From NCBI GenBank assembly GCA_041665465.1, contig JBAYIU010000001.1, positions 1,406,260 through 1,470,259 of the forward strand: a DNA stretch of 64,000 nucleotides, given 5' to 3'. The notes under the pieces are model-generated. The model saw only the letters and a program-made list of their open reading frames with translations, was not told the origin of the DNA and ran no database searches. The translations under genes and the position numbers were made by a program. This DNA comes from Candidatus Woesearchaeota archaeon (GTDB taxonomy: Archaea; Nanobdellota; Nanobdellia; Woesearchaeales; GW2011-AR9). Every line of letters starts with the position of its first letter. Positions within the stretch are counted from its first letter, which is position 1. Positions 5,001 through 64,000 of this stretch are shown here, piece by piece.

Positions 5001-8000
5001 GCTGTTCCAGATTTAGATTCATCTACTCCTTCTGCTTATACTAACGATTGGGACAGTAATTCTAGTCATGAGTTCCGTATTGCGATGAATGAAACTCAGA
5101 ACCGATTAATCATTTTTACTAATAACACTAACAATCTTGATTTTGCTTATTCCCTTAATTTAGATGAGGGTCTTAGTGGAGGAGTCTTTGGTCCTGAATA
5201 TGGAGATGATTTCTTGGTGGGATACTCTGGTGGGCCTGCGATTGGATGTTATAACTCTAGTCTTTTAGACCTCAATGTCTTACCTTGTGATAGTAGTCCA
5301 GTTACTTGTGGAAATGTTTCTGGGTATGATAGTAATTACGATGGTAACTTTACTGTTTATTGTAACAATTCTGGGAATGCTTACGAGATAGTAATCGATC
5401 TAGCCAATACCGGAAACGGATTGTGGAAGAATAAACCCGTTTATGCTCTTGACTTAAACACCAGTGCTTTTTATTATACCACTTTCAGGAACAGTTCCAT
5501 TCTCCCGGTGGTTGCAGTGGGTAATTTAACCTTAAACAATGTTACTCTCAATCTGCAGAATAATCTTACTCTAAGTGGTGGTTATCTTAACATCTATGAT
5601 TCTAATGTGACGATGATGTTGACTGCTAATAATAGTGCAAATATGGATATAAGATCTTCTAATGTGAACTTAAGTGGGACGACTTTCTCTGCTAACAATA
5701 CTAATTTTAAATATATAATAGCAATACAGAACGGAAGTTACGCCAATAATGATTTTTCAGATTTGGCATTGTGGGTTTATCCTGGAACCGGCGGGGTATT
5801 CTCAAATAATGTGGTTTCCAATTGTGGTGGGACTCCAGCGTGTATCATGGCAGCCATAGGTTATAGCAACGGATTTAATTTTACGGGAAATAACATTACT
5901 GCCACTAGTGGTACTGCTTGGGCCACTATGGTTGCGGGAAACAATTACACTTTCAGTAATAATAATATTTATGGTAGCGCTTCACTCTTTTATGGGAATG
6001 TTAGCGTAAGTAATAATTTATTTAATCGTAGTTTATCATCAACAAAGGAGTATGGAATTGATATGATTATCTTTACCAATAATATTATCTTCCCCGGTAT
6101 TAATAGCCAATTGATGGGAGATTGGAACGATACCCTTCCTGACACCTTTATCTATTCAAATAACTATGGCAAGATCACTTGGAACCTTTCTAATTATACT
6201 ACTCCTGAACCTAATCCCAGTTCTTTTGGTTTGGGATATAATTTATACTTAAATAATAACATCGTTGGGGTAAATGCACAATTATCGCTTATTAACTTTA
6301 ATACCACTGCTTCAATTGAGTTTTATGGATTGCCTTGGAATAACAGTGTACAATTATGTAACAACATTAGTGGAACTTTATCTGGGTGTGTAGATTGTAA
6401 TTCCGGGAATAATTGTACTTATAGTAATATTACTGGAATAATGCTAGCTAATGTCACTCATTTCAGCAATTATAGTACTAATGGAAGTACTGGTGTAGCA
6501 GAAGTCGGAGTTAGTTATTGTAGCGGTGCTTACACTGGTGGAAATTGGAATGTTAGTTCTTCTATCAATTGTAGTAATGAGGTTATTCCCGTGAACGGAA
6601 TTATTACTGTTCAAGATCTTTCTGAAACTGCTGTGACCCAATTTGGGGCTTCTACTGGTGGAATTTATGATTTAAGAAATAACTCTACTGGTGTTTTTGA
6701 TACGGATTTAAGTTCTTCTACTCCTTCAGCTTATACTACTGATTGGGATTCTGATTCTAATCGAGTATTTAAGATTGCTATGAATGAATCTTCAGACACG
6801 ATTCAGGTATATGGAAGTTTACCTAACGTTACTGCTTTGTATAGTTTTGATTTAGATAATAATGCTGCTACTGGTACTTCTGTCGGTGGTTCTGGATCAT
6901 CAGGGATGGATCTTACTTTTGGATATCATGCTGATGCTGGTGGAGTGTTGATGGCTTGTTACAACTCTTCTGTGCCTGGTATGTACTTAACTTGGTTTGC
7001 CGCTAGTGGAAGCATTGTTTGTGGTCAAACCATGGATGTCGGGTATGATCGTAATTATACTATCACTTTTAATTCAACTGCCTCTGGAGGAGGGAACACT
7101 TTTGAGTTTATCATTAATTCTACGGGAAGTTGGACCGATAAGAGAGTGGAATTGATGGATGGGGGTAACGCCTATTATTATTATACTAAATTCAAAACAT
7201 CTGGAGCAGTGGCCGGAGGAAGGGGGAATTTAACTCTTAACAATGTTACCTTAACCTTATCTGGAAATCTTACTATTAATGGTATATTAAACGTTAATCG
7301 TTCTTTCTTATACTTTGGAAGTAATAATACTCTTTTCACTTCAAATATCGGAGCTAGCATATTAATCAATAATTCTAATGTTACTTCTAATGGTTCTATC
7401 CGTTATGGAATACGTTCCTTAGGGTCCGACTTTACTTTAGAGAACAGCTACTTGAATGATTTGGGAGCAGTTGTTTCCTCGATGACTTATCCCTTAAAGA
7501 TGGAAGGAACAGGAGGTATGATCAAAAATCTTTCTCTTGGAGCTAACCAAAAGATGTACGGGGTTCAGATTGCTGGATCAGGAATATCTGTCCTTAATAG
7601 TACCTTTTCTGGATCTGCTAACACCATTAATTTATTAGCGGGTAGTTATAATAATATTATCCGGGGGAATAATCTTTCTACTGGGATCAGTTATCTGAAT
7701 GGTGGAAGTTCTTATAACAATCTTATCGCTGAGAATACTATTGCCGGAGTGGGGAATATCTTGATTGGTCAAACTTCTCCAGCTCATTTACCTTATAACA
7801 ACACCTATCTGAATAATAATATTCAGCAGGTTATCACTACTTATGTTGTGAACTATACCAACTATTTCATCTACAATAATTCTTATGGGCAAATAAAATG
7901 GACCAAGAATAATTTCAGTTCTTCTTTTGGAGGAAATGCAGTATTGGTGTTGGACCAGACTGTGTTTGTTAGGTCGAACTTGTTAGGAGTAACCCCCAAT

Positions 8001-11000
8001 ATGTATATGGGGAACTTCAACACTACGGCGGAATTGACTTTTAGAAATCTTCTTTGGAACAATAGTGTACAGTTATGTGAGAATGTTAGTGGAACTTTAT
8101 CTGGATGTGTGGATTGTAACTCTAGTAATAGTTGTACTTATAGTAATATTACTGGGATTATGCTAGCTAATGTTACTCACTTCAGCAATTATAGTACTAA
8201 TGGAAGTATCAGTGTGGCAGGGGGTTTGATTAATAATATCTCTGTAGTGAAATATGCGGTTAATAGTACGGTTAATTGCGATTCAAATGTAACCAGTTAT
8301 GCCCTCTTTATTATTAACGTAACCAATAACAACGCTTACAACCTTACCAACATTATTGTTAATGACACTCCCTTATGTACAAATGGGTTATCCCTTCAAC
8401 AGTCTTTGCCGATATATACTAATTTCTCCTCTTGCAATTATGCTTCTTGGACCATTGCTAATCTTGGACCGGGTGAAACTTATAATATCACTCTAAATTT
8501 TAGTGTCAGCAGTTCTGGCAATTTAACTAACACTGTGCAGGTATGGAATGCAACCAGTCAGTTAGTGAACACTACCGGTAATATCACTGTTACTGGTAGT
8601 TGTGGTGGAGAAAGTCCGGGGTCAAATTTCCTTTCCAACTTTGTAGATACTTTTGATGGAGCGACTATTAATACCAGCGTATATAATGTAACCACTGTTG
8701 GAAACATCAGTATTTCTCAGAATAATAAATTGGTGATTAACGGTTCTAGTGGATATTCATTCGCTGCAACAAATAGCTACGTGAATGTAAGTAATAACTT
8801 TAGTGTTTCAGTAAAAGTAAGTAAGTTTGATAACACTACTTATGGCATTCTAGCAGGAGATCCTTATTCTAACTTTGGTGTGTTTATCAGTAGCTTTTCT
8901 GGCTCGTCTATCTCCTCTAACTTTGTTAGATGTAACATTGCTATGAATTCAAGTGGTTATTTCTTGAATGTTCCTAACCCTGGAAATACTGTTCCTGTAT
9001 CTTATGTTGAAAATGCTACTTTAACTCTGAATTATCATGCCAACAATTATACTTGTGATTGTACTTATGGTGGACAAACTATTTCCTGTGGTAATGAGAG
9101 TCTTCCTTCTACCGACTATTCTATCCTATTGTTCGGTGGCCTCATCTCTGTATCAAATTTACAATTTGATGATCTTAATTTGACGTATAATCCCGTGGCA
9201 GCAGCAGAAACTCCTGCAGGTCCAGGATTAACCATTTATAATAATGGTTTCTTTGAGAACTTTACTTCTTTGAATTCCACATTTTATAACAACACTCTCA
9301 TGATCTTTAGTAATCCTTCTATCATTAATGGGCAGTTGATGATGAATAAAACCACTTTTGAGGGTACTGGTCAAGATTACTTCTACACTACTGTAGATAA
9401 TGTTTCAACCAATAGTTCTTGGAACATTTCTGTTTGGATAAATTTAACTAACACTACTACTAATGCACAAGGAAGTTATTTGATAGAGGCAGGAATCTTG
9501 ATTTATAATAGAACTACCTACAGTAGTTCTTTAGCCTGTGAAGTAGGATATGGTAATGGTATTGGTTTAATATTAGCAAATTATAACAATACTCACAGTT
9601 CAGCACCAACGTATACCTCGGTCTCAAGGAGTTATGGTAACTTAACTTACAGTTACAACAACGCTACTGGAATTTTTAATTGTTCTTTAGATGATGGCAC
9701 TTCTGTTGCTGGATCAACTGGTTCTTTCGGTCCGGGTATGGGTATGGGTGTTGTTTCTCAATTGTCACAAATCGGGGCAGTTGCGCCCAACGGTTCTGTA
9801 ACTGCTTACTTTGATAATTTTAATTATACTTATGCGGTAGCAGCAACTCCTGCTGTGACTTACCTATCCAACTTCACGGATGATTTTGCCGGGACTACTC
9901 TCAATACCTCGAGATACACTCTAGATGTAGGGGGAACTTTGGGAATTGCTCAAAATGAGACCGTGATTGTCAATGGAACCGACACCGGTGCAGACAGTTT
10001 TGCGGGGACTTATACTAATTTGGGGGTTAACACTTCACGTTCATTCTATGTTTCTGTAGGGGTCCTAAACCTTACTAACACCAGCGCTATTACCAGTCCG
10101 AATGGTTACGCAGACGTTAGTCTTTCCTTGACTGATGTTGGTCTTGATTTTCTGAATTTTGCTGTCTGTAAGGTTAGGGTTAAACCGACAGGAATCTATT
10201 TGGAAGATGATAATGTTCAAAGTGTGCCCATATCTGCTACCAACGGTACTTTAGTGCTTTCTTTCAACGCTTCCAACCTGAATTATACCTGTGCTTTTGC
10301 TGGAGATAGTTTAACTAGTGCCAATCTCTCTGGTTTAGGTGGAAATAATAGTTTGGATCTTGTTGCCGAAGCACTTAATACTTCTGTCTGGGCAGAGATA
10401 GATAATCTAGAATTTGCTTATGGGGTTTATTCTGCTCCCGTAGAAACTCCTGCTGTGACTTACCTTTCTAACTTCACTGATAGTTTTACTGGAGTTACTA
10501 TCAACACTAGCAGATATATCTTAGATGAAGGCGGAAACTTATCTATGGCTCAGAATGGTACTTTGGTGGTCAATGGTACTGATAGTGGTTTTGATAGTTG
10601 GGAAGGAGTGTATACTAATTTAGGAGTTAACACTTCAGATTCTTTTTACATTTCAGTTGATGTTAATCTTACTAATACTAGTGCGATTACCAATGCGAGT
10701 GGTGCCACTCGTGCTTATATCTCACTCGCTGATGTGGCAACTGAACTGGATTTTGCGATGTGTGTAATTTACATAAGTCCAGCGGAGGTTGCTTTACAGG
10801 ATGGTGAGGGCGGTGGTCATGCTATGCCTCTATCTATAACCAATGGTACGCTGGTTATGGCTTTCAACGTTTCAAGTATGAATTATAGCTGTCAGTTTGC
10901 TGGACAAAATCTAACTCATGCTAATCTCTCTAGTCCAAGTGGTAATTATAGTTTGTTCTTAGAGTCTGATGCTTTGTATACCTCGACGTGGGCAGAGATG

Positions 11001-14000
11001 GATAACTTAGAGTTTGCCTATGGAGTTTATTCTGCTCCCGTAGCAGAAACTCCTGCTGTGACTTACCTATCCAACTTCAACGATACTTTTGATGGAGCGA
11101 CTATTAATACCAGTAGGTATACTGTTATTTCTGATGGGAATACTACCCTGTCTCAGAATAATAAAGTTATCATTAATGGTACTTCCGGTAGACCCATGAT
11201 GGGGATGAATAGCGCGGTAAACATCAGTAATAATTTCAGTGTTTCAGTCAAAGTAAGTAAATTTGACAATACCACTTATAGTATTATGGGAGCAGATCCT
11301 TATTCTTCTTTTGGGTTGTATATCGGTAACTTTTCTAATTCCAGTTATGATAAAGGCTTTGTTCGATGTAAACTTGCCATGAATTCTAGTGGTTATTTCT
11401 TGAATCATCCTAATTCCGGAAACACTGTTCCTGTCTCTTATGTAGAGAATGGAACTCTTACCTTGACATATTATGCTAATAATTATTCCAATAGTTGTAA
11501 TTATGATGGGAAAAATGTTTCTGGCATTAATGAGAGTTCTTCTTCTGGAGTATATTCTATCATTATGAATGCACAACCCCTTTCTTTAATCAACTTACAA
11601 TTTGATGACCTTAATTTGACGTATAATCCTGTAGCAGCAACTCCTGCTTCTGATAACTCTCCTAATGTTACTCTAGCCAATCCTGAAAATAATTATGTCA
11701 ACGATTCTGCGTCGAGAATTAATATCACTTTTGAATGTGATGCTACTGATGATTATCAACTAGTTAATGTCTCTTTATATTTAACTAATCCTGCTAATGC
11801 TTCTTTTGCTCTGAATCAAACCACCAATGTTGGTGGCACATCTAATTCAACTAGTTGGTTAGTAGAATTAGGTAATGGAAATTATACTTGGGGTTGTCTA
11901 GCATTCGATAATGCTTCTCAGTCCAGTTTCTCTACCCTCAATCACAGTATTCTAATAAACCATACTGTCTCGATATCTGATACCACTTATCCTACTGTAA
12001 CCCTAATCTCTCCTGCAAGCAGTTCTTACACAAACGCTAACAATAGTACCTTACCTTTTGTGTTCGGATACCAAGACAGTAATGATGCTACTGCTAACTG
12101 TACCTTATACCTGAACGGAGTAGCTAGAGGGAATAACGCTAGCACTAGAAACAACACTAACACTAATCTGTATTCTAGTACTACCTTCTCTGAAGGAAGT
12201 AATTCTTGGTACGTTAACTGTACTGATGCCGCTGGAAATACTAACGGAACTTCTACTTGGACTTTCATTGCTGATACTATTAATCCAACTGCTTCAATTA
12301 ATTCCATTAATACTCAGTATAGTGGTCAATGGACCAATACTCAAACTTTAAGTATTAATGCTACTGCTAGCGATGTTAACATTAATTATTGGAACCTTTC
12401 TGTATACAACAGTAATAGTTTAATTACTTCCAATCAGACTTCTGGAAGCAACCTTAATAATCTCGTTACTCTAAGTGTTTCTGCTGATGGAAATTATACT
12501 GTGAATTTAACCGTAACGGATCAAGTTAATAATTCCAACACTTCCACTTTCAATCTTCTAGTTGATACCTTTGCTCCTACTGTTAATTTGACTACTCCTC
12601 CTACAAATGTCTTAGTGTCCTTGGCATCAATAACTTCCACTTTCAATTTCACTGATGCTAGTTCTTCTAGCGCTAATTGCACTTTGTATGTGGGGGGGAT
12701 AGTTAAAGCAACTAACTCCTCTGTACTTAATTACACTAATACTGTGCTTACTGGTAGTTCTCTCTCTGAAGGGAACAATTCTTGGTATGTTAATTGTACT
12801 GATTTAGCAAGCAATACTGGAATCTCTGAAGTAAGAGTTATTCGAGTAGACACTACCACTCCCAGTGTCAGTGGTGCTAGTGTAAACGTAAGTCGAGCTA
12901 AATCTTCTACTTTGGTTGGAATCAATGTTACTGTAACCGATACCAATTTAGCCTGGGTTAAGGCTAATGGGATAAACATGAGTGCCAGTGGAAGCGACAT
13001 GTACAATCTTAGTGCAACTGCCTCTACTTTAGGATGTAGCGAAGGTACTTGTACTATTACTATAATTGCCAATGATTCTGCTAGAAATGCTAATAGTAGC
13101 GTTACTACCAGTTATGTGGTAGATGATACTGCTCCTGCACTGTTCTCTAACTCCACTTCTATCGCTACTGGATCAGTATACAATGCTTCATCTACTTATT
13201 ACTTCAATGTTACTTGGAATGAAACCGGAACCATTTCTAGTCCCTTATTAGAATTTAACAGTGCAAATTATACTATGACTACGGTTGGAAGCGGTGTTTA
13301 TTATTATACTTTTACCGATTTAGCAACTAGTACTTATTCTTACAAATTCATTGCTATAGATGATTCTGGGAATAGTAATGAGACTGCTAGTTATACTTAC
13401 GTTGTAGCTCAGGCAACTCCCTCTATCACCGCTTTACTTAATGGTACAGCTGCTAACCTAAGTGTCGCTTATCCCAATACCGTTAATGCTTCGGGAAGTA
13501 CCGACGCTGGAACCTTAGCTATTTATCGTAACGGGACATCTGTAACTAATGGGGCTGCATCTCTTTTAACTGTTGGATCTTATAGATATGATTTTAACGT
13601 TACTGGAAATCAGAATTATACTAACGCTTCTGCTACCTTGTATGCTACTGTGACTAAAGGTACTCCTGTCCTAACTTATTACTTAAATGGAAATACCACA
13701 AACTTAAGTGTTGTTTATCCTAATACCGTTAATGCTACTGCATCAACTACTGCAGGAACCTTAACCATTTACAGAAATGAAACTAATGTTACTAGTGAGA
13801 ATGGTGCAGCAACTTCTTTAGCTGTTGGATATTATCAATATGATTTCAATATAAGTGGTGGAGAGAATTATACTGATACTTCTACTACTTTGTATGCTAA
13901 TGTAACAATTGGAACTCCAACCTTGTCCCTGTACTTAAACGGAGCAGAAAACAATATGTCTGTAAACTACGGAACTAAAGTAAATGTTACTGGAACAGGT

Positions 14001-15179
14001 TCTGCATCTCAATTAAGTTATACCCTCTATCGTAACAATGTATCTACCCCTAACCCTGAAATTCTTTCCAATCTGTCTTACGGGACCAATTACACTTACC
14101 TCTTTAACACCAGCGGAAATGCCAATTACAGTGCTTCCTCGGTGTCTTACCAATTAGAAGTATTGTTGGGAGCGACTCAAGAATTAACCAATTCAACTGA
14201 TATTACTGTTACTAATACTACTACCGAAATTGTAATTCAGAATTCTAGTTTATCTCAAGTACGACTAAATTCTAGTATCGCTAGTACTACTCAAGTAAAT
14301 CTTTCTTTAGGTTTACTGATGGATCAGTCTACTGGAACTTTCAGTCTAGGAGAAAATAACTTCACCATGACTAGGGAAGTCTCTGGAGTGAACTATACTG
14401 TAGATATCCCGGCTAATACTAACTTGACTGGTGGAAGTGCTTGGGATGGTAAGTTTACTTTGCCCACTTTACCTGCTACTAGCGGATTTACTGCACCTTC
14501 TGGCAGTGTTAATTTAGTGATTGAAGTTGGTTCTACGGTGGAGATTAATCTCTCCGCTCCGGCAAAAATCGTTTTAAATGGAATGTCTGGAAAATCTGCA
14601 GGATGGTCCAGAAGTGGTACTATCACTGAGATAACCACTGTTTGTGATAATGCTACCTTGCCTACCAACATTAATACTACTAGTCCTAGAATCTGTTCTG
14701 TTGATAGTGGTAGTGATCTAATCGTTTGGACTTATCATTTCACTAACTTTGCTGCTTACACTCCCAGCGACGGATCTTCTAGTAGTTCTAGTAGCGGTGG
14801 AGGAAGTAGTAGTAGCAGCAGCACTCCCTCTTCTGCCCCAACAGAATACGCTACCGAGAACCCTGCTCCTAAATTGCCTTCAGTAACTAAAGCACCAACA
14901 GTGACTGCTCCGGTTGAAGTGCCAGTGGAAAATCCCGTTACGACTGTTCCTGAGACTGTTCCGGTTGAAGAGAATAAAGCTTTAGCGGGAATGGCTATCT
15001 CTGATCAACTTCGTTCAATCTTAACCGATTGGAGTAATTTATGGATTGGGTTAGTGGTGGTGGCTTTAATCGTTCTATCTCTATATCCTGTATTTAAGAG
15101 AGTTAAAAATAATCGTAACCGGGAAGAGATGCGAGAAGAATTAAGACAACAAGCGGCTAAGAAAATCAAACAGAAATAA
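2082..15179 (+). CDS. Giant (4365 aa) modular cell-surface protein: N-terminal signal/anchor helix, beta-helix-like Asn-rich repeats, lectin/LamG-like and Ig-like repeat modules, Ser/Thr/Pro-rich stalk, C-terminal TM helix with a basic cytoplasmic tail; saturated with N-x-S/T sequons (putative heavily N-glycosylated S-layer/adhesin-like protein)
   Basis: Single 13,098-nt ORF in AT-rich DNA (stop codons would be frequent by chance). AGGTG RBS 4 nt upstream. N-terminal 'LATLLVIFGILFSLQLY' helix. C-terminal 'SSSSSSSGGGSSSSSS...PTVTAPVEVPVENPVTTVPETVPV' stalk, then 'LWIGLVVVALIVLSLYPVF' and 'KRVKNNRNREEMREELRQQAAKKIKQK'. Modules recur 3-6 times. Confidence 0.88.
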   Translation: MKKKKKVVRKVHSKVRSKVGTQPSSPFLSVGLRGLATLLVIFGILFSLQLYSSESSLLKEGWTSLSQGFNGMGNLLTGAAVGVEEMQVQAGDCAGAYTGGNWTINSSVSCSNDVISVDGFVIIRNDSISPELVVNNFSLTTTGVYDLRGNSTNIVLAVPDLDSSTPSAYTNDWDANSGREFRIAMNESQNRIMVYVNNTDNSSFLYEFDLDDNPSTGGIVGAGDDFGIGYIGDFGGPLIGCYNSSDPQNNLILLSCDNSPLTCGNVDGYDGTFMGNFTVYCNNSGNAYEVVIDLTNASDGIWETKPVYALDPTDQSSPFYYTTFRNNSVLDSGINASGNLVLNNVTLNLENNFTISGGNLDIQKSNLTFRLTSNGSANFMISSGTAFANINHSAFTSNNSILRWKARITDGDYNLTNNVFSYVGYDNGDGIGYNYEVGFYFASPLGGLVYNNTFSNCGTIAEASCVSLVDGDGNSRNTGLNFSSNTIFSESAGLGTFYLSDYSNTSYTSGVFIGNNTFYGRFSVGGRNHIISGNYINKSLWLSSVEYNNTFINNEVRTELGFASINEQNTSYGSSIIIYSNGYGKMTWSGKDNIQMGLVSVDETFGLGNYFYVGNNLLGLNVGNGAGIDFSVLNTTASLEFYSLLWNNSVQLCVNNSGTLSGCVDCNSGNNCTYSNITGIMLANVTHFSNYSTNGSISVAESPAVTYLTNFTDTFTGTTINASRYTITQSGLNVSQSDKIIFNGSYEGATFFTNSFVDTNQSFVISINVAKFDQTEYVGILEDIGPLGGAPDDNEVGISIENDTTRILMCKLLKNDTGYFIEANGFTHPAETMQVNYTEGQLFSLNYSNIDGRYSCNYAGEMVSNTNSSAAGADFITFDAEAISQMNLQLDDLNFYYGTLVEEAPGSSYCGGAYTGGNWNINSSISCSNEAITVNGTLTVADNSVSANDVTNNFTSNSAANYNLRDNSTNIVLAVPDLDSSTPSAYTNDWDSNSSHEFRIAMNETQNRLIIFTNNTNNLDFAYSLNLDEGLSGGVFGPEYGDDFLVGYSGGPAIGCYNSSLLDLNVLPCDSSPVTCGNVSGYDSNYDGNFTVYCNNSGNAYEIVIDLANTGNGLWKNKPVYALDLNTSAFYYTTFRNSSILPVVAVGNLTLNNVTLNLQNNLTLSGGYLNIYDSNVTMMLTANNSANMDIRSSNVNLSGTTFSANNTNFKYIIAIQNGSYANNDFSDLALWVYPGTGGVFSNNVVSNCGGTPACIMAAIGYSNGFNFTGNNITATSGTAWATMVAGNNYTFSNNNIYGSASLFYGNVSVSNNLFNRSLSSTKEYGIDMIIFTNNIIFPGINSQLMGDWNDTLPDTFIYSNNYGKITWNLSNYTTPEPNPSSFGLGYNLYLNNNIVGVNAQLSLINFNTTASIEFYGLPWNNSVQLCNNISGTLSGCVDCNSGNNCTYSNITGIMLANVTHFSNYSTNGSTGVAEVGVSYCSGAYTGGNWNVSSSINCSNEVIPVNGIITVQDLSETAVTQFGASTGGIYDLRNNSTGVFDTDLSSSTPSAYTTDWDSDSNRVFKIAMNESSDTIQVYGSLPNVTALYSFDLDNNAATGTSVGGSGSSGMDLTFGYHADAGGVLMACYNSSVPGMYLTWFAASGSIVCGQTMDVGYDRNYTITFNSTASGGGNTFEFIINSTGSWTDKRVELMDGGNAYYYYTKFKTSGAVAGGRGNLTLNNVTLTLSGNLTINGILNVNRSFLYFGSNNTLFTSNIGASILINNSNVTSNGSIRYGIRSLGSDFTLENSYLNDLGAVVSSMTYPLKMEGTGGMIKNLSLGANQKMYGVQIAGSGISVLNSTFSGSANTINLLAGSYNNIIRGNNLSTGISYLNGGSSYNNLIAENTIAGVGNILIGQTSPAHLPYNNTYLNNNIQQVITTYVVNYTNYFIYNNSYGQIKWTKNNFSSSFGGNAVLVLDQTVFVRSNLLGVTPNMYMGNFNTTAELTFRNLLWNNSVQLCENVSGTLSGCVDCNSSNSCTYSNITGIMLANVTHFSNYSTNGSISVAGGLINNISVVKYAVNSTVNCDSNVTSYALFIINVTNNNAYNLTNIIVNDTPLCTNGLSLQQSLPIYTNFSSCNYASWTIANLGPGETYNITLNFSVSSSGNLTNTVQVWNATSQLVNTTGNITVTGSCGGESPGSNFLSNFVDTFDGATINTSVYNVTTVGNISISQNNKLVINGSSGYSFAATNSYVNVSNNFSVSVKVSKFDNTTYGILAGDPYSNFGVFISSFSGSSISSNFVRCNIAMNSSGYFLNVPNPGNTVPVSYVENATLTLNYHANNYTCDCTYGGQTISCGNESLPSTDYSILLFGGLISVSNLQFDDLNLTYNPVAAAETPAGPGLTIYNNGFFENFTSLNSTFYNNTLMIFSNPSIINGQLMMNKTTFEGTGQDYFYTTVDNVSTNSSWNISVWINLTNTTTNAQGSYLIEAGILIYNRTTYSSSLACEVGYGNGIGLILANYNNTHSSAPTYTSVSRSYGNLTYSYNNATGIFNCSLDDGTSVAGSTGSFGPGMGMGVVSQLSQIGAVAPNGSVTAYFDNFNYTYAVAATPAVTYLSNFTDDFAGTTLNTSRYTLDVGGTLGIAQNETVIVNGTDTGADSFAGTYTNLGVNTSRSFYVSVGVLNLTNTSAITSPNGYADVSLSLTDVGLDFLNFAVCKVRVKPTGIYLEDDNVQSVPISATNGTLVLSFNASNLNYTCAFAGDSLTSANLSGLGGNNSLDLVAEALNTSVWAEIDNLEFAYGVYSAPVETPAVTYLSNFTDSFTGVTINTSRYILDEGGNLSMAQNGTLVVNGTDSGFDSWEGVYTNLGVNTSDSFYISVDVNLTNTSAITNASGATRAYISLADVATELDFAMCVIYISPAEVALQDGEGGGHAMPLSITNGTLVMAFNVSSMNYSCQFAGQNLTHANLSSPSGNYSLFLESDALYTSTWAEMDNLEFAYGVYSAPVAETPAVTYLSNFNDTFDGATINTSRYTVISDGNTTLSQNNKVIINGTSGRPMMGMNSAVNISNNFSVSVKVSKFDNTTYSIMGADPYSSFGLYIGNFSNSSYDKGFVRCKLAMNSSGYFLNHPNSGNTVPVSYVENGTLTLTYYANNYSNSCNYDGKNVSGINESSSSGVYSIIMNAQPLSLINLQFDDLNLTYNPVAATPASDNSPNVTLANPENNYVNDSASRINITFECDATDDYQLVNVSLYLTNPANASFALNQTTNVGGTSNSTSWLVELGNGNYTWGCLAFDNASQSSFSTLNHSILINHTVSISDTTYPTVTLISPASSSYTNANNSTLPFVFGYQDSNDATANCTLYLNGVARGNNASTRNNTNTNLYSSTTFSEGSNSWYVNCTDAAGNTNGTSTWTFIADTINPTASINSINTQYSGQWTNTQTLSINATASDVNINYWNLSVYNSNSLITSNQTSGSNLNNLVTLSVSADGNYTVNLTVTDQVNNSNTSTFNLLVDTFAPTVNLTTPPTNVLVSLASITSTFNFTDASSSSANCTLYVGGIVKATNSSVLNYTNTVLTGSSLSEGNNSWYVNCTDLASNTGISEVRVIRVDTTTPSVSGASVNVSRAKSSTLVGINVTVTDTNLAWVKANGINMSASGSDMYNLSATASTLGCSEGTCTITIIANDSARNANSSVTTSYVVDDTAPALFSNSTSIATGSVYNASSTYYFNVTWNETGTISSPLLEFNSANYTMTTVGSGVYYYTFTDLATSTYSYKFIAIDDSGNSNETASYTYVVAQATPSITALLNGTAANLSVAYPNTVNASGSTDAGTLAIYRNGTSVTNGAASLLTVGSYRYDFNVTGNQNYTNASATLYATVTKGTPVLTYYLNGNTTNLSVVYPNTVNATASTTAGTLTIYRNETNVTSENGAATSLAVGYYQYDFNISGGENYTDTSTTLYANVTIGTPTLSLYLNGAENNMSVNYGTKVNVTGTGSASQLSYTLYRNNVSTPNPEILSNLSYGTNYTYLFNTSGNANYSASSVSYQLEVLLGATQELTNSTDITVTNTTTEIVIQNSSLSQVRLNSSIASTTQVNLSLGLLMDQSTGTFSLGENNFTMTREVSGVNYTVDIPANTNLTGGSAWDGKFTLPTLPATSGFTAPSGSVNLVIEVGSTVEINLSAPAKIVLNGMSGKSAGWSRSGTITEITTVCDNATLPTNINTTSPRICSVDSGSDLIVWTYHFTNFAAYTPSDGSSSSSSSGGGSSSSSSTPSSAPTEYATENPAPKLPSVTKAPTVTAPVEVPVENPVTTVPETVPVEENKALAGMAISDQLRSILTDWSNLWIGLVVVALIVLSLYPVFKRVKNNRNREEMREELRQQAAKKIKQK
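2529..2602 (+). repeat. 74-nt segment of the giant gene identical to 4980..5053 (codes LAVPDLDSSTPSAYTNDWD)
   Basis: Both copies read directly; perfect nucleotide identity. Confidence 0.85.
4015..4169 (+). repeat. About 155-nt near-identical intragenic module (WNNSVQLC..SGTLSGCVDCNSGNNCTYSNITGIMLANVTHFSNYSTNGS), copy 1 of 3; other copies about 6335..6489 and 8055..8216
   Basis: Near-identical nucleotide strings at three positions in the giant ORF. Confidence 0.8.
4980..5053 (+). repeat. Second copy of the 74-nt identical intragenic repeat (see 2529..2602)
   Basis: Direct comparison of the two segments. Confidence 0.85.
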
Positions 15180-15182
15180 TGT

Positions 15183-16910
15183 TTATATCTTTTTAATCAT
15201 GTAAGGTCCTTCTAAGCGATACCCTAACTTTCTGTAATAATTACGAACACCTATTCCGGAAATAATTACCATTCTAGTCTTAGAATATTTTCTAGCTATC
15301 TCTTCTGCTGTTTTCATCAACTTTTTACCCCATCCTCGATGTTGGACGGTTCCTTCTTCTCCGATAGCGGTAGCTGTGCCATACACATGTAATTCTCTGA
15401 TTAATGCAGAATTCTTAGTAATCTCTTTTCTTAACAAAGTTGAAGGGAAACGCATTCTGATAAATCCAATTAGTAAATCATTCTTGATGTCTTCTGCAGA
15501 AATGAAGAACTCTTCTCCTTGAGAGGCATCATATTCATTTACTTTAATCTTAATATCTTTCCACGAAATCTTATGTCCTTTTGGTTCTCGGCAACGGATA
15601 CAACGACAATTTACAGGATAGGTCTGATGCAGATATTGACGTAGATTGGTCATCTTTACTCCCGCTACGATCTGGGTGGAAGGAATGTCTCGCTGGATGC
15701 GCATGATTCTACAATATTCCGGAACGTACTTCTTAAACTTAAAGATCATCTCTGCTGCATCTTCTGCAACTAATGGTTTAAACTTCCCTTGTTGATATTC
15801 CTTATATAATTTGGTTCCTTTAGCTACCATGCATGGATATATCTTCAACATATCAGGACGATAGTTTTGGTCAGAGAATAGTCTAATCATCCCTTTAAGA
15901 TCTTCCTCTTTACTTAATCCAGGAAGTCCAGGCATATAATGTCCTGCAACTTTAAATCCGAGATCTTTCAATATTTGGATAGATTGTTGAGTCTGTAAGG
16001 TGGTATGTCCGCGTTGAATCCGCTGAAGAGTCTTATCATATACACTTTGTATCCCTAACTCTACTCTGGTACAACCCAGACGAAGCATTTCATTGCCTTG
16101 AATTAATAGTCCATAATCCGGGCGAGTCTCAATACATAAAGCCACTGCTTTGATGGTTGAAGTCTCGTTTCTCTTTTGTTCTTTGATCAAAGAAGAACGT
16201 CCTTTCAGAGCTAACATCTTTTTCTTTACTCTTTTAATCCTGGTTGTATCATTAGGCGGTGCAGGAAGTTCAAAGAACTGTTTGAATTTAAGATAATTTA
16301 ATTCTCCTCGATAATAAAATTGTTGAGAGAAATCGTTCATGGCCTTGAATGCAAATTTAATAAACTTTTCTTGATATGGTTTAGGAAAACTTGGAAAGGT
16401 TCCACCCATAACTATCAGTTCTACTTTTTCGCAGTTGTGTCCCAACAAAATGTATTGTTCTAATCGGTTCATCACTTGCAGGTATGGATCATAATCATTA
16501 TGGATTCCGCGCATGGTAGCGGGTTCAGTTCCGGTATAGGATTGAGGAACGTTGCCGAAAGCACTTTTTACTCCTCCTGGACACATGATACATTTTCCGT
16601 GAGGACAAGGGAAAGGTTGGGTCATAATAGCGACGGGAGCTACTCCGGAAAGACTTCTTACTGGTTTACTTAGCAAGAAAGGTCTTAGTTTTACTGCTTC
16701 TTGTTTATTAGCATGTAGAAGAATCTGGATATTAGTGGGCACTTCTTTTAAATTATATTTTCTGGATAGGTCTCTCTTAATCTGATCGAACTCTTTTAGA
16801 GATAGGTTTCTTCTAAGTAGGATCTTAAGTAGTTCGGGGTAAAATTCAGACATGAGTAGTAGAAAAGATAGTTTGAATAAAAGGTTTTCTGTGGTTAGAC
16901 AAAATTTCAT
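15183..16910 (-). CDS. elp3: Elongator Elp3 homolog (radical SAM plus GNAT acetyltransferase; tRNA wobble-uridine modification)
   Basis: 'CPHGKCIMCPGG...SYTGTEPATMRGIHNDYDPY' matches the Elp3 radical-SAM region. C-terminal GNAT 'QHRGWGKKLMKTAEEIA'. True start may be the internal Met (MSEFYPELL, 16853). Converges with the giant gene, stop to stop 3 nt apart. Confidence 0.9.
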   Translation of the reverse strand: MKFCLTTENLLFKLSFLLLMSEFYPELLKILLRRNLSLKEFDQIKRDLSRKYNLKEVPTNIQILLHANKQEAVKLRPFLLSKPVRSLSGVAPVAIMTQPFPCPHGKCIMCPGGVKSAFGNVPQSYTGTEPATMRGIHNDYDPYLQVMNRLEQYILLGHNCEKVELIVMGGTFPSFPKPYQEKFIKFAFKAMNDFSQQFYYRGELNYLKFKQFFELPAPPNDTTRIKRVKKKMLALKGRSSLIKEQKRNETSTIKAVALCIETRPDYGLLIQGNEMLRLGCTRVELGIQSVYDKTLQRIQRGHTTLQTQQSIQILKDLGFKVAGHYMPGLPGLSKEEDLKGMIRLFSDQNYRPDMLKIYPCMVAKGTKLYKEYQQGKFKPLVAEDAAEMIFKFKKYVPEYCRIMRIQRDIPSTQIVAGVKMTNLRQYLHQTYPVNCRCIRCREPKGHKISWKDIKIKVNEYDASQGEEFFISAEDIKNDLLIGFIRMRFPSTLLRKEITKNSALIRELHVYGTATAIGEEGTVQHRGWGKKLMKTAEEIARKYSKTRMVIISGIGVRNYYRKLGYRLEGPYMIKKI

Positions 16911-16939: not shown

Positions 16940-17635
16940 ATGCTTATGGATAAGGTTTATTATATTGAAGATTACTTTATGTCTGGTATTATCTCTTTCT
17001 TAAAGGGACAAGGGTTTGCTAAAATTAATTTTGTTCCTTTGAACATTCCTTCTGATCCAAGAGAAGCTTTCGGGAAGAAAGTCAATTTTGCCATAGAGGA
17101 AGAATCTGCAGTATTGATTTGGGGAGACGGTTCTTTTCATCAGGCTAGTTATTATTTTAGTCCTTCGCAACCGTATTGTAAATCGGTTGATGATGCTCAT
17201 CATGATTTTAAAGAATGTTATGAAAGTATTTCTTGTGCTAGTCATAATTTGGCCTTAATCAGAAATGATCCTCTTTTACAGGAATTAGAATTGTTAGGAG
17301 TAACTGAGGAAGATTCTCAACTTAATTCTTCTTCAAAAGTGAGGATTTGTTCCAGCTTAGGTTCAAACTTTTCTCGCAGATTAGTCCATAAGAGTATAGA
17401 TTTAGATGTGATTTTTGGGTATCCTTGTTCAGAAAGTTATGCTTCAGGAAGGTTTACTTTTCCAGCAGTAATGAGTGCGTTTGAAGAAATTCTTAGAAAT
17501 AATGACCTTAGTCGGTTAGATCTGGGTGGGTTAAGTAAATATGCTAAGGATAGTTTAATTCCTTTAATTCATAAGGGTTATGGGATGAGGGAATATCGAG
17601 ACCTGCTTACCTTATTTTTCGACTATCGTCATTAG
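16940..17635 (+). CDS. Arginase/agmatinase (ureohydrolase)-fold protein, short and with altered metal-binding motifs
   Basis: 'LIWGDGSFHQ' (compare GGDHS), 'SVDDAHHD' (DAHxD), 'SIDLDVIFGYP' (SxDxDxxDP). Only 231 aa. Confidence 0.4.
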   Translation: MLMDKVYYIEDYFMSGIISFLKGQGFAKINFVPLNIPSDPREAFGKKVNFAIEEESAVLIWGDGSFHQASYYFSPSQPYCKSVDDAHHDFKECYESISCASHNLALIRNDPLLQELELLGVTEEDSQLNSSSKVRICSSLGSNFSRRLVHKSIDLDVIFGYPCSESYASGRFTFPAVMSAFEEILRNNDLSRLDLGGLSKYAKDSLIPLIHKGYGMREYRDLLTLFFDYRH

Positions 17636-20447: not shown

Positions 20448-20553
20448 ATAAATCTTTCTGTGAAAAAGAGTGCAAATTCCAAAGTATCAGTACAAATTGT
20501 ATCCCTCCCATTTTTACTAAACCTTTAAAAAGCACCCGAATAACTTCCGTCTT

Positions 20554-39865: not shown

Positions 39866-40597
39866 TTATTTTATACTTTTCCACAGATATTCAAAATACT
39901 TTCGATAGTTATCCGCTAGTTTCTTATGCTTAGTTACAAAAGCCAACGGTTTTTCCAACCATAGGATATTAGCGACATAATCTCCGTAAATATAGATGAC
40001 GTTCAACCCACTAAGAATCTTAGGCAGAACTTTGTATTGATAATATTTTGATTGAGTAATTGATTTGTTTTTGGCTTCATGAACTAAGAGTAATCTCCAT
40101 TTGCACTTTAATTTCTCTCTTTTCTTGTTGTATTGTGGCCAGAAGTATGGTAAGCGATTCTCTACATCTCCTGTTGCCCCAATGAATAAGACTTCTTTAT
40201 AATTCAAGCATTCTTTTAATATGGTCTTAATCCCTTCTGTGCCTCGATAAATTTCTGATTCAATTTCGGCAGGAGCTTTTCCAGGATATGAATTCATCTC
40301 AGAGATGATCTTTTTAACCTCTTGTCTTTGTTCTTCAATCTTCGCCTTTTTCTCATCTAAATATTTCTCTAAGTTTTCTGGTTTCTTGGCTTGAAAAAAT
40401 TTGATTTTGTTCTCTATAACATAACTCACCAGTCCTTTTTCAATCAATCGATTCAAGGCATCGTAAAGATTCTTCCTATACACTCCGGTGTCATCGACAA
40501 TCTTTCTTGCAGAAGTTGCTCCTAAATTTAATAATGAGAGATAAATCTTAATCTCGGTTTCGGTTAATCCAATCTCTTTTAAGAGTTTTGTATTCAT
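39866..40597 (-). CDS. TrmB-family transcriptional regulator
   Basis: N-terminal wHTH 'LTETEIKIYLSLLNLGATSARKIVDDTGVYRKNLYDALNRLIEKGLV'. Confidence 0.7.
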   Translation of the reverse strand: MNTKLLKEIGLTETEIKIYLSLLNLGATSARKIVDDTGVYRKNLYDALNRLIEKGLVSYVIENKIKFFQAKKPENLEKYLDEKKAKIEEQRQEVKKIISEMNSYPGKAPAEIESEIYRGTEGIKTILKECLNYKEVLFIGATGDVENRLPYFWPQYNKKREKLKCKWRLLLVHEAKNKSITQSKYYQYKVLPKILSGLNVIYIYGDYVANILWLEKPLAFVTKHKKLADNYRKYFEYLWKSIK

Positions 40598-45561: not shown

Positions 45562-46512
45562 ATGGTAGATAATACGGACTTGCGTTTATTGTACGAGTTG
45601 AATTGGAACTGCCGACAGACTCACACCTCTTTAGGTAAGAAGCTGCGTATTTCTAAACAGGTGGTAAGTTATAGAATTGCTCAGTTAGAGAAAAACCAGA
45701 TAATTCAAAGTTATCATGCTTTGATTGATTGGAGAAAGTTAGGATATAATTCTATTCGTGTTTACATCAAGTGGCATCGTATCTCTCCGGAAGAAGAAAA
45801 AAAGATATACGACGAGATTAAAAAAAACCCTTTCTTTATGTGGACAGTTAAGTTTGAAGGAGAGTTTGACTTGGGTCTTTACATGTGGGTAAAGGAAGTG
45901 CCAGAATTTTCTCAGAAATGGTTTTCCTTTCTAGCTAAGTACAAAAAGTTTATCTTAAGATATGAGATTTACGAATCGGTCAATATGGTCCATTATCCCA
46001 TGAAAGTGTTAGTTGAGAATTCTAAAAATGATGAGAAAATACTTGGCGAAGGAAATAAAGTAGAATATGATTCCATCGATGATGAGATTATGAAAGTTCT
46101 TACCGAGAATGCTTCAACTTCACTCGTAGAATTAGCTAAAAGAATTAAATTAACGCCAAAAGCAGCTCTTTATCGTCTACGTAAATTAGAGAAAAACAAG
46201 ATAATTCTCGGTTATAATGCCTTAATTGATACTGATAAGTTAGGTTATCGTTTTTATAAGATTGATTTTTATCTCAATGACTTTAGCCGAATTAAGGAAA
46301 TGAATGAGTTCGCTAAGCAGCATAAGAATATTGTTTATCGCATGAGAACTATTGGTGGTCCAGATTTTGAGATTGAGGTTATGGTTAAAGATGTTACGGA
46401 AATGAATCAATTAGTTGCAGAGATCAGGAGAAGGTTTTCTGAATGTATAGAATATTCCCGTTTCCACCGTTTTGAGTATACAATTAAACAGGTGTATCTA
46501 CCGGGAGAGTAA
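45562..46512 (+). CDS. Tandem-duplicated Lrp/AsnC-type transcriptional regulator (two HTH plus RAM-like units in one chain)
   Basis: 'TDLRLLYELNWNCRQTHTSLGKKLRISKQVVSYRIAQLEKNQII' and 'DDEIMKVLTENASTSLVELAKRIKLTPKAALYRLRKLEKNKII' each followed by a 'YHALID/YNALID' RAM-like segment. Confidence 0.7.
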   Translation: MVDNTDLRLLYELNWNCRQTHTSLGKKLRISKQVVSYRIAQLEKNQIIQSYHALIDWRKLGYNSIRVYIKWHRISPEEEKKIYDEIKKNPFFMWTVKFEGEFDLGLYMWVKEVPEFSQKWFSFLAKYKKFILRYEIYESVNMVHYPMKVLVENSKNDEKILGEGNKVEYDSIDDEIMKVLTENASTSLVELAKRIKLTPKAALYRLRKLEKNKIILGYNALIDTDKLGYRFYKIDFYLNDFSRIKEMNEFAKQHKNIVYRMRTIGGPDFEIEVMVKDVTEMNQLVAEIRRRFSECIEYSRFHRFEYTIKQVYLPGE

Positions 46513-47992: not shown

Positions 47993-49060
47993 ATGTCCTT
48001 GTTTAAAGATATGTTGAAAGGTGGTGAGACCATTTTTAGAGATAGTGTTGTTCTTGACTATGATTATCAGCCTAAGATGATCAAGTACCGTGAGAATGAA
48101 CAGATGCGTTTCGCTACCGCTATCAGGCCTTTGCTGCAAGGCAATAATGGAAGAAACCTGTTTGTGTATGGTCCGCCAGGGGTGGGTAAAACTACTGCTT
48201 GCAAGCACGTGTTAAGAGAACTACAGGAAGAAACTGATGAAGTTCATACAGTTTACATCAATTGCTGGAAAGAAAATACCACTTTTAAGATTTATATCAA
48301 GATTTGTGAGGATTTAGGATACAAATTCATTCAAAGCAAGAAAACTTCTGAACTGTTTGGGATGATCAAACAGCACTTTAATAAGAAGCCGGTAGTGTTT
48401 GTGTTTGATGAGATCGATAAATTAGAGGATACTGATTTCTTGTACGGGATATTAGAAGATATTTATCGTAAGTCGATTATTGTTTTAACAAATTATCGAG
48501 ATACTTATTCTGAACTGGATGAACGTATCAGAAGCCGTTTCTCTCCAGAATTTCTTCCTTTTAATTCTTATACTGAACAAGAGATTGCTGGAATAATGAA
48601 AGAACGTTGTGAGTATGCTTTCATCCCGGATAGTTGGGACCAGGATGCTTTTATGGAAATTGTAGAAAAGTGTACCGAACTACAGGATGTACGAATTGGA
48701 TTATATATGATGCGAGAAGCAGGGAATCTGGCTGAAGAAAAGAGTTCTCGTAAAGTTACTCTTCCCCATGTAGCGGAAGCACTTAAAAAAGTAGATGAAT
48801 TCCATATCAAACCTAAAGAAGGGTTAGACGAAGAGTTGCAGATGATTCTGGACTTGGTAAGAAGTAATTCTGGAAAAAAGATTGGTGATGTGTATACTGC
48901 TTATGTAGAAAAAGGTGGAGAGATGAGTTATAAAAGTTTCCAGCGTCGCATTCTTAAATTGCAGGAAGGCCGTTTCTTAAACATGGAAAAGTTATCCAGT
49001 AAAGAAGGAAATACTAGTATTGTTAGTGTAAGCGCAGATAAGAAACTTAATGAGTTCTAA
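47993..49060 (+). CDS. orc1: Orc1/Cdc6 replication initiator
   Basis: Walker A 'GPPGVGKTT', Walker B 'VFVFDEID', sensor and winged-helix C-terminus. Confidence 0.85.
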   Translation: MSLFKDMLKGGETIFRDSVVLDYDYQPKMIKYRENEQMRFATAIRPLLQGNNGRNLFVYGPPGVGKTTACKHVLRELQEETDEVHTVYINCWKENTTFKIYIKICEDLGYKFIQSKKTSELFGMIKQHFNKKPVVFVFDEIDKLEDTDFLYGILEDIYRKSIIVLTNYRDTYSELDERIRSRFSPEFLPFNSYTEQEIAGIMKERCEYAFIPDSWDQDAFMEIVEKCTELQDVRIGLYMMREAGNLAEEKSSRKVTLPHVAEALKKVDEFHIKPKEGLDEELQMILDLVRSNSGKKIGDVYTAYVEKGGEMSYKSFQRRILKLQEGRFLNMEKLSSKEGNTSIVSVSADKKLNEF

Positions 49061-62602: not shown

Positions 62603-62799
62603 GTATTCCTCTTTTTGGGGAGAAGTAGTTGTTTTAAGTTTATAAAAATTTGGAAAAGCCACTGAACAGAGTGGTTTGTCCAGTGGCACTAACCTTCCAA
62701 ACCCTAAATCTTTTGGGAATCAGCCGTTCTAGAGAAGCCACTCCCGCACTGGACAACCTCAGCTAGAATATATAAAGGGGTTCTGCTCTTAGGTTTATT

Positions 62800-63642
62800 A
62801 TGGAAACGCACAATGCTTTGGTGGTCTTTGAGGGTAAGAATCTCCGTAGAACTTGGCACAACGAACAATGGTATTTTTCGGTGGTGGATATTGTGGCAGT
62901 TTTAACCGAGAGTGTAGATTCTAAGGATTATTGGTATAGATTGAAGCAAAGAGAACTTGAATCAAGCGGAATTGAGTTATCGACATTTTGTCGACAACTG
63001 AAATTACTTTCAGCAGATGGTAAATATTATGAGACGGATTGTGCTAATACTGAATCATTATTTCGTATCATTCAATCCGTTCCCTCAAAAAAAGCAGAAC
63101 CGTTCAAGCTGTGGTTAGCTAAGGTGGGTTATGAACGTATCCAAGAAATAGAGAACCCAGAACTCGCTCAGAAACGGATGAGAGAAATATACAAAGCTAA
63201 AGGTTATTCAGATGAGTGGATTGAGAAACGGGTCAGAGGTATCACAGTAAGAGATGAATTGACTAGTGAATGGGATAAACGGGGAATAAAGAAAGAAAAA
63301 GAATTTGCTATTTTAACTGCGGAGATCTCTAAAGCTACGTTTGATATGGCTCCCCATGAATATTCTAAATTCAAGGGGCTAAAGAAAGAACCTTTACGAG
63401 ATCATATGAATGATTTAGAACTAATTTTTACTATGTTAGGAGAAGCTTCTACTACCAGAATAGCTAGAAACAAGGACGCTCAAGGTTTTCCTGAAAACCA
63501 ATCTGCGGCGAAGAAAGGCGGACAGATTGCTGGTGATGCTAGAAAGAGTCTAGAGGTAGAATCAGGAGAAGCAGTAGTTACTTCTGAGAATTATCTTCAA
63601 GAACCAGAAAAAAAGAAAAGGAAGCAGTTAAGAGGTAAATAA
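62800..63642 (+). CDS. Bro-N-like DNA-binding-domain protein (phage antirepressor/DinD-like), compositionally atypical
   Basis: N-terminal 'FEGKNLRRTWHNEQWYFSVVDIVAVL' Bro-N-like pattern; higher GC; TATA (ATATATAAAG) 22-31 nt upstream. Confidence 0.4.
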   Translation: METHNALVVFEGKNLRRTWHNEQWYFSVVDIVAVLTESVDSKDYWYRLKQRELESSGIELSTFCRQLKLLSADGKYYETDCANTESLFRIIQSVPSKKAEPFKLWLAKVGYERIQEIENPELAQKRMREIYKAKGYSDEWIEKRVRGITVRDELTSEWDKRGIKKEKEFAILTAEISKATFDMAPHEYSKFKGLKKEPLRDHMNDLELIFTMLGEASTTRIARNKDAQGFPENQSAAKKGGQIAGDARKSLEVESGEAVVTSENYLQEPEKKKRKQLRGK

Positions 63643-63666
63643 GTTTCTTTATCTCCCTTCATTTCA

Positions 63667-63830
63667 CCCATAATCACAGAAAACTTCGTTTTCTTGGTTA
63701 GGGTAAAATCCTTCGAGTTTGCCCATAACCACAGAAAATCTTATTTTCTTAGTTTTGTGTTCTGCCACAAAACCACAGAAAACTCCGTTTTCTTAGTTAG
63801 GGTAAAATCCTTCGGGTTTACCCATAACCT
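63667..63830. repeat. Array of about 2.5 direct repeats (44-55-bp period) each containing CCACAGAAAAC, a palindrome AGAAAAC-N3/4-GTTTTCT, and a GGGTAAA...TTT(A/G)CCC inverted repeat; immediately upstream of the leuS BRE/TATA
   Basis: Copies centred at 63675, 63730, 63774; read directly. Confidence 0.6.
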
Positions 63831-63861
63831 TTAAAAACCACCCTTCACTCCCTTCCTCGAT

Positions 63862-64000
63862 ATGGTTTTAGAATGGAACTCTCTGCAAGATAAATGGCAG
63901 AAAGCGTGGCAGGAAGCACAATTAGGTAAAGCTAGCGTCAAAAAGAACAAAGATAAGTTCATGATGATCTTTGCCTATCCGGGTGTTTCTGGTTACTTAC
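63862..64000 (+). CDS. leuS: Leucyl-tRNA synthetase, N-terminal fragment (continues beyond window)
   Basis: 'DKWQKAWQEAQL...KFMMIFAYPGVSGYL' parallels archaeal LeuRS 'EKWQKRWLEAKIF...KFYITVAFPYLSGHLH'. Confidence 0.55.
   Translation, partial: MVLEWNSLQDKWQKAWQEAQLGKASVKKNKDKFMMIFAYPGVSGYL

Follow-up and report, generated by a model that had tools for sequence, protein, structure and literature searches.

A 64,000-nucleotide stretch of a Candidatus Woesearchaeota archaeon genome (contig JBAYIU010000001.1; the whole stretch is called the window below) carries an array of palindromic repeats upstream of leuS, the gene encoding LeuRS. The array consists of three tandem units with two hairpins each, located at 63667-63829 between a gene with a Bro-N domain and the leuS promoter, and the repeats at these coordinates are real and non-random. 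We tentatively read the array as a modular palindromic repeat cluster, similar to repetitive extragenic palindromes and bacterial interspersed mosaic elements (REP/BIME) or to a miniature element, which may grow by insertion or duplication of a 55-nt unit. A first-pass annotation of the window had left three explanations open, namely a replication-origin element, an operator array and a small structured RNA. Judged by comparison with related loci, the array is lineage-specific and perhaps fits best outside all three, as a repeat of REP/BIME kind or of the kind of miniature inverted-repeat transposable elements (MITE). Elements of this kind are already known, and the array is a variant in a poorly studied archaeal lineage. 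If the reading is true, the locus is among the few where the turnover of non-coding repeats has been dissected in any DPANN archaeon: small palindromic modules are gained and lost beside the promoter of an essential gene, one hairpin is common to dispersed MITE-like repeats of sister genomes, and the modules may have been recruited to serve as terminators or insulators within a very compact genome.

The whole intergenic spacer is 219 nt long and its sequence is identical in the ENA and JGI assemblies; the GC content of the source genome is 36%. The array order is left flank, A1-B1, A2-B2, A3-B1' and TATA box, where A, B1 and B2 denote the hairpins. Units 1 (63675-63729, forward strand, CACAG...CCCATAAC) and 3 (63774-63828, forward strand) are copies of one 55-nt A-B1 module, about 90% identical, with an nhmmer E value of 3e-9 between the two. 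A long repeat of 62 nt is likewise present in two copies, with 90% identity and 99 nt apart. Flanked by the two 55-nt units is unit 2 (63730-63773, forward strand), a 44-nt A-B2 module. The left flank (63645-63674, forward strand) consists of TTCTTTATCT followed by 20 nt with the end CCCATAAT, and its segment 63654-63674 is similar to the 3' half of hairpin B1. The centre-to-centre distances of the A palindromes, 55 and 44 bp, are multiples of 11 bp and are in helical phase.

Hairpin A is 17 nt long, B1 about 35-37 nt and B2 22 nt, and all lie on the forward strand as given here. The A hairpins are AGAAAAC-ttc-GTTTTCT (A1, 63678-63694), in which the T4/U4 tract is the 3' arm, AGAAAAT-ctt-ATTTTCT (A2, 63733-63749), with a compensatory change of the innermost pair from C-G to U-A, and AGAAAAC-tcc-GTTTTCT (A3, 63777-63793). 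The first-pass annotation described three repeat copies, each starting a 7-bp palindrome; the palindromes are where it placed them, but the first copy reads TCACAGAAAAC and not CCACAG. Hairpin B1 of unit 1 (TGGTTAGGGTAAA...TTTGCCCATAACCA, 63695-63731) has 13 + 2 bp, one bulge and one U·G pair, and on its right it shares two bases with the start of unit 2. Hairpin B1' of unit 3 (GTTAGGGTAAA...TTTACCCATAAC, 63796-63828) contains CC-UUCG-GG, and its 3' arm is the promoter segment proximal to the transcription factor B recognition element (BRE). These are the two GGGTAAA...TTT(A/G)CCC stems noted earlier, and they proved longer than claimed, (T)GGTTAGGGTAAA / TTTRCCCATAACC(A) with one bulge. The proposal that their A-to-G difference can be read as a G-U pair was also correct, with T·G in unit 1 versus T-A in unit 3. 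The B1 pattern GGGTAAAATCCTTCGRGTTTRCCC occurs at 63701-63724 and 63800-63823, where the chance expectation is 0 matches. Second hairpins had been assigned to these two copies only; the middle unit also has one, the overlooked B2 (GTTTTGTG-ttctgc-CACAAAAC, 63752-63773), with a perfect 8-bp stem.

The A and B1 palindrome patterns have no other occurrence in the 64-kb window, and perfect hairpins across the window, this cluster apart, are at chance level (48 versus 22-61 in shuffles). The spacer folds far more strongly than its shuffles on both strands (z = -6.0 on the forward and z = -3.8 on the reverse strand); for palindromes, fold energies are uninformative about the strand.

As judged from aligned copies, the hairpin pairing is maintained by compensatory change among both paralogues and orthologues. 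In hairpin A, 35 of the 35 cells are paired across five paralogous or orthologous copies, and 2 of the 7 pairs have changed on both sides (A-U to G-C; C-G to U-A to A-U). This level of covariation was reached by only 4 of 500 shuffles, and RNAalifold agrees. Positions 1 and 7 of the half-site change symmetrically, and it is base pairing, not a homodimer site, that needs such change. We infer that the modules may act as single-strand hairpins rather than as double-stranded protein-binding sites.

We gathered leuS loci of relatives through LeuRS homologues of 70-86% identity. L126 (LeuRS 86% identical to the window) has a homologous flank (TTCTTTAAAC, 20 nt, CACAG), one hairpin A, B2 and the TATA box. 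L122 (85%) also has one unit, in which A is GGAAAAA-ttc-TTTTTCC, with two compensatory pair changes, and B2 is slightly altered; there CTGGGAAAAA replaces CACAGAAAAC and CCACAG is lacking. Unit 2 of the window is orthologous to the single unit of these two loci, and the arms of B2 are kept in both while the loops differ. In L124 (86%) the right 17-18 nt of B1, directly beside the TATA box, are the only part present. Among the relatives of 85-86% LeuRS identity the unit count is thus 0-1, versus three in the window. At greater distance, L127 (72%) has a single hairpin, L128 and L168 (72% to the window and to each other) have different three-hairpin arrays, and no hairpins are present in L125, L167, L171 and L174 (70-77%) or in L177 (70% to the window, 80% to L128). 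A counterpart upstream of leuS, to which the first-pass annotation had attached weight, is present in L126 and L122 as the single A-B2 unit, but it does not extend to the five hairpin-less loci. Of the roughly 9 lineages sampled, 3 have arrays ahead of leuS. Since it is absent from close relatives, the array is not essential. Perfect hairpins are enriched about 12-fold in the 200 nt upstream of leuS (14 versus 1.2 expected from the rest of the loci; the lineages are not fully independent), and the unrelated palindromes B1 and B2 take the same TATA-adjacent position in different relatives. A further Woesearchaeota contig at NCBI (L178) ends 40 nt upstream of leuS, at the promoter, and L177, an independent assembly, is continuous and repeat-less there.

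Compared with L126 and L122, the 55-nt A-B1 unit forms two precise extra blocks in the window, with no target duplication. The block junctions lie after ...AAY and before C; the unit copies follow ATAAT^ and AAAAC^. Unit 3 is at the point where L126 and L122 go directly from CACAAAAC to CTTTAAAAA. An AACC microhomology is found at both junctions of the blocks, of which there are only two copies. In these alignments the unit has the behaviour of a discrete indel, and the modules are possibly mobile. The cluster would expand and contract in steps of whole modules, through insertion, excision or slippage, at a site that would be a recombination-prone junction between a variable gene slot and the leaderless core promoter of leuS.

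The arrays of L128 and L168 are built of (CAC)AGAAA...TTTCT(T)GTG stems, the tips of which differ in length, together with a GC-clamped hairpin of A/T runs near the TATA box. L177, the relative of L128 with 80% LeuRS identity, is array-less, and therefore the arrays appear to be sporadic insertions. The L128 array (2835-2962) folds with -55 kcal/mol (z = -8.3) and lies between divergent genes. Part of it is a composite stem of some 22 bp, bordered by ATATAGTCA repeats in direct and inverted orientation.

Related hairpins were found in other DPANN genomes. When one genome per species was scanned with the pattern CACAGAAAAYNNNRTTTTCTT, the matches listed were mostly single chance matches in bacteria, and the source genome was not listed; also among the matches listed were Woesearchaeota and Nanoarchaeota assemblies with several matches per genome. 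At least three other Woesearchaeota or Nanoarchaeota assemblies have the hairpin CACAGAAAAC-ttt-GTTTTCTTGTG as part of intergenic repeats that are 120-230 nt long, specific to each genome, multi-copy and composed of strings of hairpins. One such repeat family has 9-bp terminal inverted repeats (GGTCATGGC) and occurs in L017 (about 60-300), L055 (about 330-560) and L104 (about 560-800). A second family (L019, L073, L074 and L110) interrupts the assembly, lying at four contig ends, and further loci with these repeats are L004 (4448-4495), L021 and L057. In the neighbouring hairpins of these repeats, as in L128 and L168, the AGAAA/TTTCT base of the stem is constant and the tip varies in length, so that the arm-to-arm distance in the wider hairpin family ranges from 3 to 16 nt. 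A scan of metagenome contigs with a longer pattern gave five chance matches, none in the source genome and all in coding DNA of unrelated, GC-richer contigs, and viral scans for hairpins A and B1 gave chance matches or none. With nhmmer, a search of the units against all loci collected gave back the units and their orthologues and nothing else. In L004, some 90 nt upstream of the pair of hairpins, ARAGORN gave an odd 97-nt tRNA call (4585-4681, reverse strand), probably of an intron-containing tRNA, where the Rfam tRNA model scores below threshold.

The TATA box of leuS, TTTAAAAA (63830-63837, forward strand), is located at -32 to -25, 24 nt before the ATG at 63862. The last stem arm ends at 63828-63829, flush against TTTAAAAA, and not about 10 nt before it as had been stated. 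In most of the relatives examined, hairpin-less ones included, AAC[C/G]TTTAAAAA is found at -34 to -37 of leuS, with variants in the rest, and a TATA-like box stands at the same distance before many other genes of the window. From this conserved TATA distance it follows that the leuS mRNA is probably leaderless and that the array lies upstream of the core promoter. RNA reading through from the upstream gene on the forward strand would contain the array; each module would fold, with a U4 tract as its 3' arm. Four U4 tracts are present within 110 nt on the forward strand, and as many or more on the reverse strand. In archaea, U4 tracts are a termination signal, and two or more raise the efficiency of termination through aCPSF1 (PMC8716108). 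Because its hairpins bear U4 tracts on both strands, the array is a probable bidirectional terminator, 3'-end protector or insulator before the leuS promoter. Such a role, of a sort that REP elements have in bacteria, would probably be exerted via the U tracts, the hairpins and aCPSF1.

Like REP/BIME, whose palindromes measure 20-40 nt, the array is made of imperfect palindromes, here of 17-37 nt, that fold into hairpins. It forms a cluster in an extragenic spacer just 3' of a gene, as a mosaic of module types in tandem, its copy number varies between close relatives, and a role in termination or 3'-end protection is plausible for it. In other respects it differs. The conserved GTAG or CGTC tetranucleotide that marks one end of REP (PMC3733652) is absent here. 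The stems of the array are AT-rich whereas those of REP are GC-rich, and the host is an archaeon. REP are dispersed at high copy, while the array is one cluster in the 74 kb examined, and no REP-associated tyrosine transposase (RAYT) was found in the window. The A-B1 unit also resembles miniature IS200/IS605 derivatives, such as palindrome-associated transposable elements or MITE-like forms. It has a hairpin at each end, no terminal inverted repeats, no target duplication, and a precise presence or absence at ...AAY^C, and the same hairpin is carried by the multi-copy MITE-like repeats in other Woesearchaeota assemblies. Unlike such elements, the unit has two copies at one locus, and its hairpins are flush with the ends instead of subterminal; microhomology-mediated duplication or deletion would explain it equally well. 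No Y1 transposase or TnpB gene was found among the ORFs (open reading frames) of the window. Like archaeal U-tract terminators and the bidirectional intrinsic terminators of bacteria, each module has an A-tract, a stem-loop and a T-tract, with U4 on both strands; archaeal terminators differ in that a hairpin is generally not needed. A bolder proposal, which we consider rather improbable, is that the A-B1 unit, with the hairpin CACAGAAAAC-loop-GTTTTCT(T)GTG that it has in common with multi-copy repeats of other Woesearchaeota, represents an undescribed family of hairpin-ended miniature mobile elements in DPANN archaea. Such elements would insert without target duplication at promoter-proximal AAC^C sites, repeatedly at leuS, supplying bidirectional U-tract terminators, and would be an archaeal counterpart of REP/RAYT.

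Several observations weigh against a mobile or REP-like cluster with a terminator role. Apart from a solitary 14-mer described below, the 74 kb examined in the source genome yielded no further module copy, so the high copy number that is a hallmark of REP and MITE is not seen here. No transposase, RAYT or integrase was found among the window ORFs. Local tandem duplication together with deletion at the AACC microhomology explains both 55-nt copies without mobility. The matches in DPANN repeats are biased by ascertainment, because the search pattern required a palindrome. At the 3' ends of other genes in the window there are plain T runs and no hairpins, so that hairpin terminators do not appear to be usual in this genome. 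In L128 the array separates divergent genes, with no obvious need of a terminator. A general use of hairpin terminators in the genome was itself considered and rejected, given the plain T-run 3' ends and the chance level of hairpins elsewhere.

Among the other explanations, an operator or activator array is rather unlikely. A dimeric regulator, for example of Lrp/AsnC or TrmB type, would bind the three 17-bp A palindromes cooperatively and control leuS, with a second site, B, overlapping the BRE. The palindromes are spaced by multiples of 11 bp, a spacing that is fixed within the clade and fits the operator proposed in the first-pass annotation. They also lie directly upstream of the BRE and TATA box, the 3' arm of hairpin B being the BRE-proximal segment; several lineages show an excess of hairpins ahead of leuS; and genes for Lrp/AsnC-type (45562-46512) and TrmB-type (39866-40597) regulators are present in the window. 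The solitary exact 14-mer TAACCACAGAAAAC, identical to the array motif (16884-16897, reverse strand), is about 10 nt upstream of another TATA box, that of an ORF at 16940-17635. It falls in codons 5-9 of an Elp3-like tRNA-modification gene (15183-16910, reverse strand), and may be a chance occurrence or a shared site. Against an operator speak the symmetric variation of half-site positions 1 and 7, even among units of one genome, the interchange of the unrelated B1 and B2 beside the TATA box, and the arm-to-arm distance of 3-16 nt in related hairpins. The element is moreover missing from many relatives, including the 80% relative of a carrier, and no regulator gene is linked to the array. A small non-coding RNA with defined structure, or else a leuS isoform with a long 5' leader, made of tandem hairpins and starting at a weak distal promoter (TTCTTTATCT, some 25 nt ahead of A1), appears less likely still. 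The evidence for single-strand hairpins is compatible with it only in a broad sense: folding is strong, paired positions are compensated, a U·G wobble is tolerated on the forward strand in B1 of unit 1, B1' has a cUUCGg tetraloop, and a TATA-like TTCTTTAWMY stands at a conserved 20 nt before CACAG in the window and L126. TATA-like words are, however, common in a genome of 36% GC, the palindromes fold on either strand and as DNA, and the number and type of units vary among close relatives and are absent in many. The sequence C-GAA-G, which is the loop as read on the reverse strand, is a stable DNA mini-hairpin, and this counts against a reading as RNA only. A search with Rfam 15 at permissive thresholds, T-box included, gave nothing above chance in the window region and 19 related loci, and no demonstrable promoter/terminator pair was found at the array. 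For want of an Rfam match a T-box or other known leader was rejected.

A recombination site or scar is improbable. In this explanation the palindromes would be targets (att-, attC- or dif-like) or relics of the events that fill the gene slot between PolX and leuS. Each relative has unrelated cargo in that slot, followed by related palindromic modules beside leuS, and B2, with 8-bp arms and a 6-nt spacer that varies between relatives, recalls the core sites of tyrosine recombinases. GTTAGGG and CCATAAC loosely recall attC cores, and DPANN archaea are known to have integrons and attC clusters (PMC9668308). The window nevertheless has no recombinase gene, the other border of the slot is without a matching site, and the promoter-like direct repeats of L124 and L171 probably reflect a consensus common to promoters (AACCTTTAAAAA[C/G]CACCC, also at 20520). 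An attC site of an integron cassette, as in clusters of attC sites lacking integron-integrases (CALIN), was rejected, as the hairpins measure about 37 nt versus 55-141 nt, the cores CCATAAC and GTTAGGG violate RYYYAAC/GTTRRRY, and neither a cassette array nor intI is present in the window. A CRISPR-like mini-array was also rejected, its "spacers" 1 and 3 being nearly identical and spacer 2 only 14 nt long. Least probable is an Orc1/Cdc6-bound origin element resembling an origin recognition box (ORB). Like ORB and mini-ORB, the array repeats a short A-rich motif that ends in GAAAC and has some dyad symmetry; CCACAGAAAAC matches CCAGTGGAAAC at 8 of 11 positions with GGGT downstream, and an Orc1/Cdc6-like gene (47993-49060) is indeed 14.6 kb away, close to the 15 kb reported earlier. 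The mini-ORB consensus TTCCAGTGGAAAC has invariant TTCC and GAA motifs (PMC1904270). The array copies read AAYCACAGAAAAY at the ORB-like motif, with TTCC missing and 5 mismatches to that consensus, and mini-ORB-like words (at most 3 mismatches) number 23 versus 20 expected in the window, none of them in the array. ORB are often arranged in inverted orientation round an AT-rich unwinding element and adjoin orc1, whereas all three copies here are direct repeats in a spacer of only 219 nt away from orc1. The array has a GC content of 0.35-0.37, no different from the genome average (0.36), and hence there is no AT-rich unwinding element. The array is not conserved, with 0-3 units in close relatives and no CCACAG in L122. 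GC skew has no extremum at the array, though it tracks gene orientation over the 74 kb, a span too short to judge. The origin explanation of the first-pass annotation is therefore rejected, and the locus warns against origin calls from ORB-like words alone; it has no bearing on replication-origin biology.

The modular repeat cluster, which remains our tentative preference, borders a variable gene region. The leuS 5' end is at 63862-64000 (forward strand), and on the source contig (L120) the complete gene has a product of 943 aa. Upstream of the array is the Bro-N domain gene (62800-63642, forward strand), and beyond it the PolX gene, in divergent orientation. The slot between PolX and leuS is horizontally filled, and the Bro-N gene in it is horizontally acquired. 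The slot (62603-63642 in the window, 2070-3900 in L122, 3317-3947 in L124, 136-828 in L126 and 617-1099 in L171) holds unrelated genes in each lineage, such as an AbrB-like protein, GrpB, small ORFs or, here, Bro-N. In L174 it is empty, and PolX is directly divergent from leuS with an 85-nt spacer. Bro-N homologues of 65-67% identity are encoded on the IMG/VR viral contigs L169 and L170, where the array is lacking. The array was accordingly rejected as part of a mobile Bro-N gene, since viral Bro-N homologues are without it and the modules of relatives follow other genes.

In L124 (3373 and 3961) and L171 (583 and 1164), the leuS promoter is present a second time, at the genes inserted upstream of leuS, and in L171 the similarity continues to the ATG, with about 85% identity over about 55 nt. 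Direct repeats thus flank the inserts (CCCATAAYCTTTAAAAA in L124, GAGTAACCTTTAAAAACATT in L171), and the leuS promoter was considered as an att site. This idea was downgraded because an identical promoter consensus is found at an unrelated gene of the window at 20520; the near-identical core promoters AACCTTTAAAAA[C/G]CACCC belong to leuS (63826-63843) and to a DHH-family gene (20520-20537). In the divergent promoter region of PolX and Bro-N (62650-62690), an inverted repeat GCCACTG...CAGTGGC with nested CCACT/AGTGG contains TCCAGTGG, and its likeness to the ORB dyad core is coincidental. The window also contains a giant ORF of 4365 aa (2082-15179); giant ORFs are typical of DPANN surface proteins.

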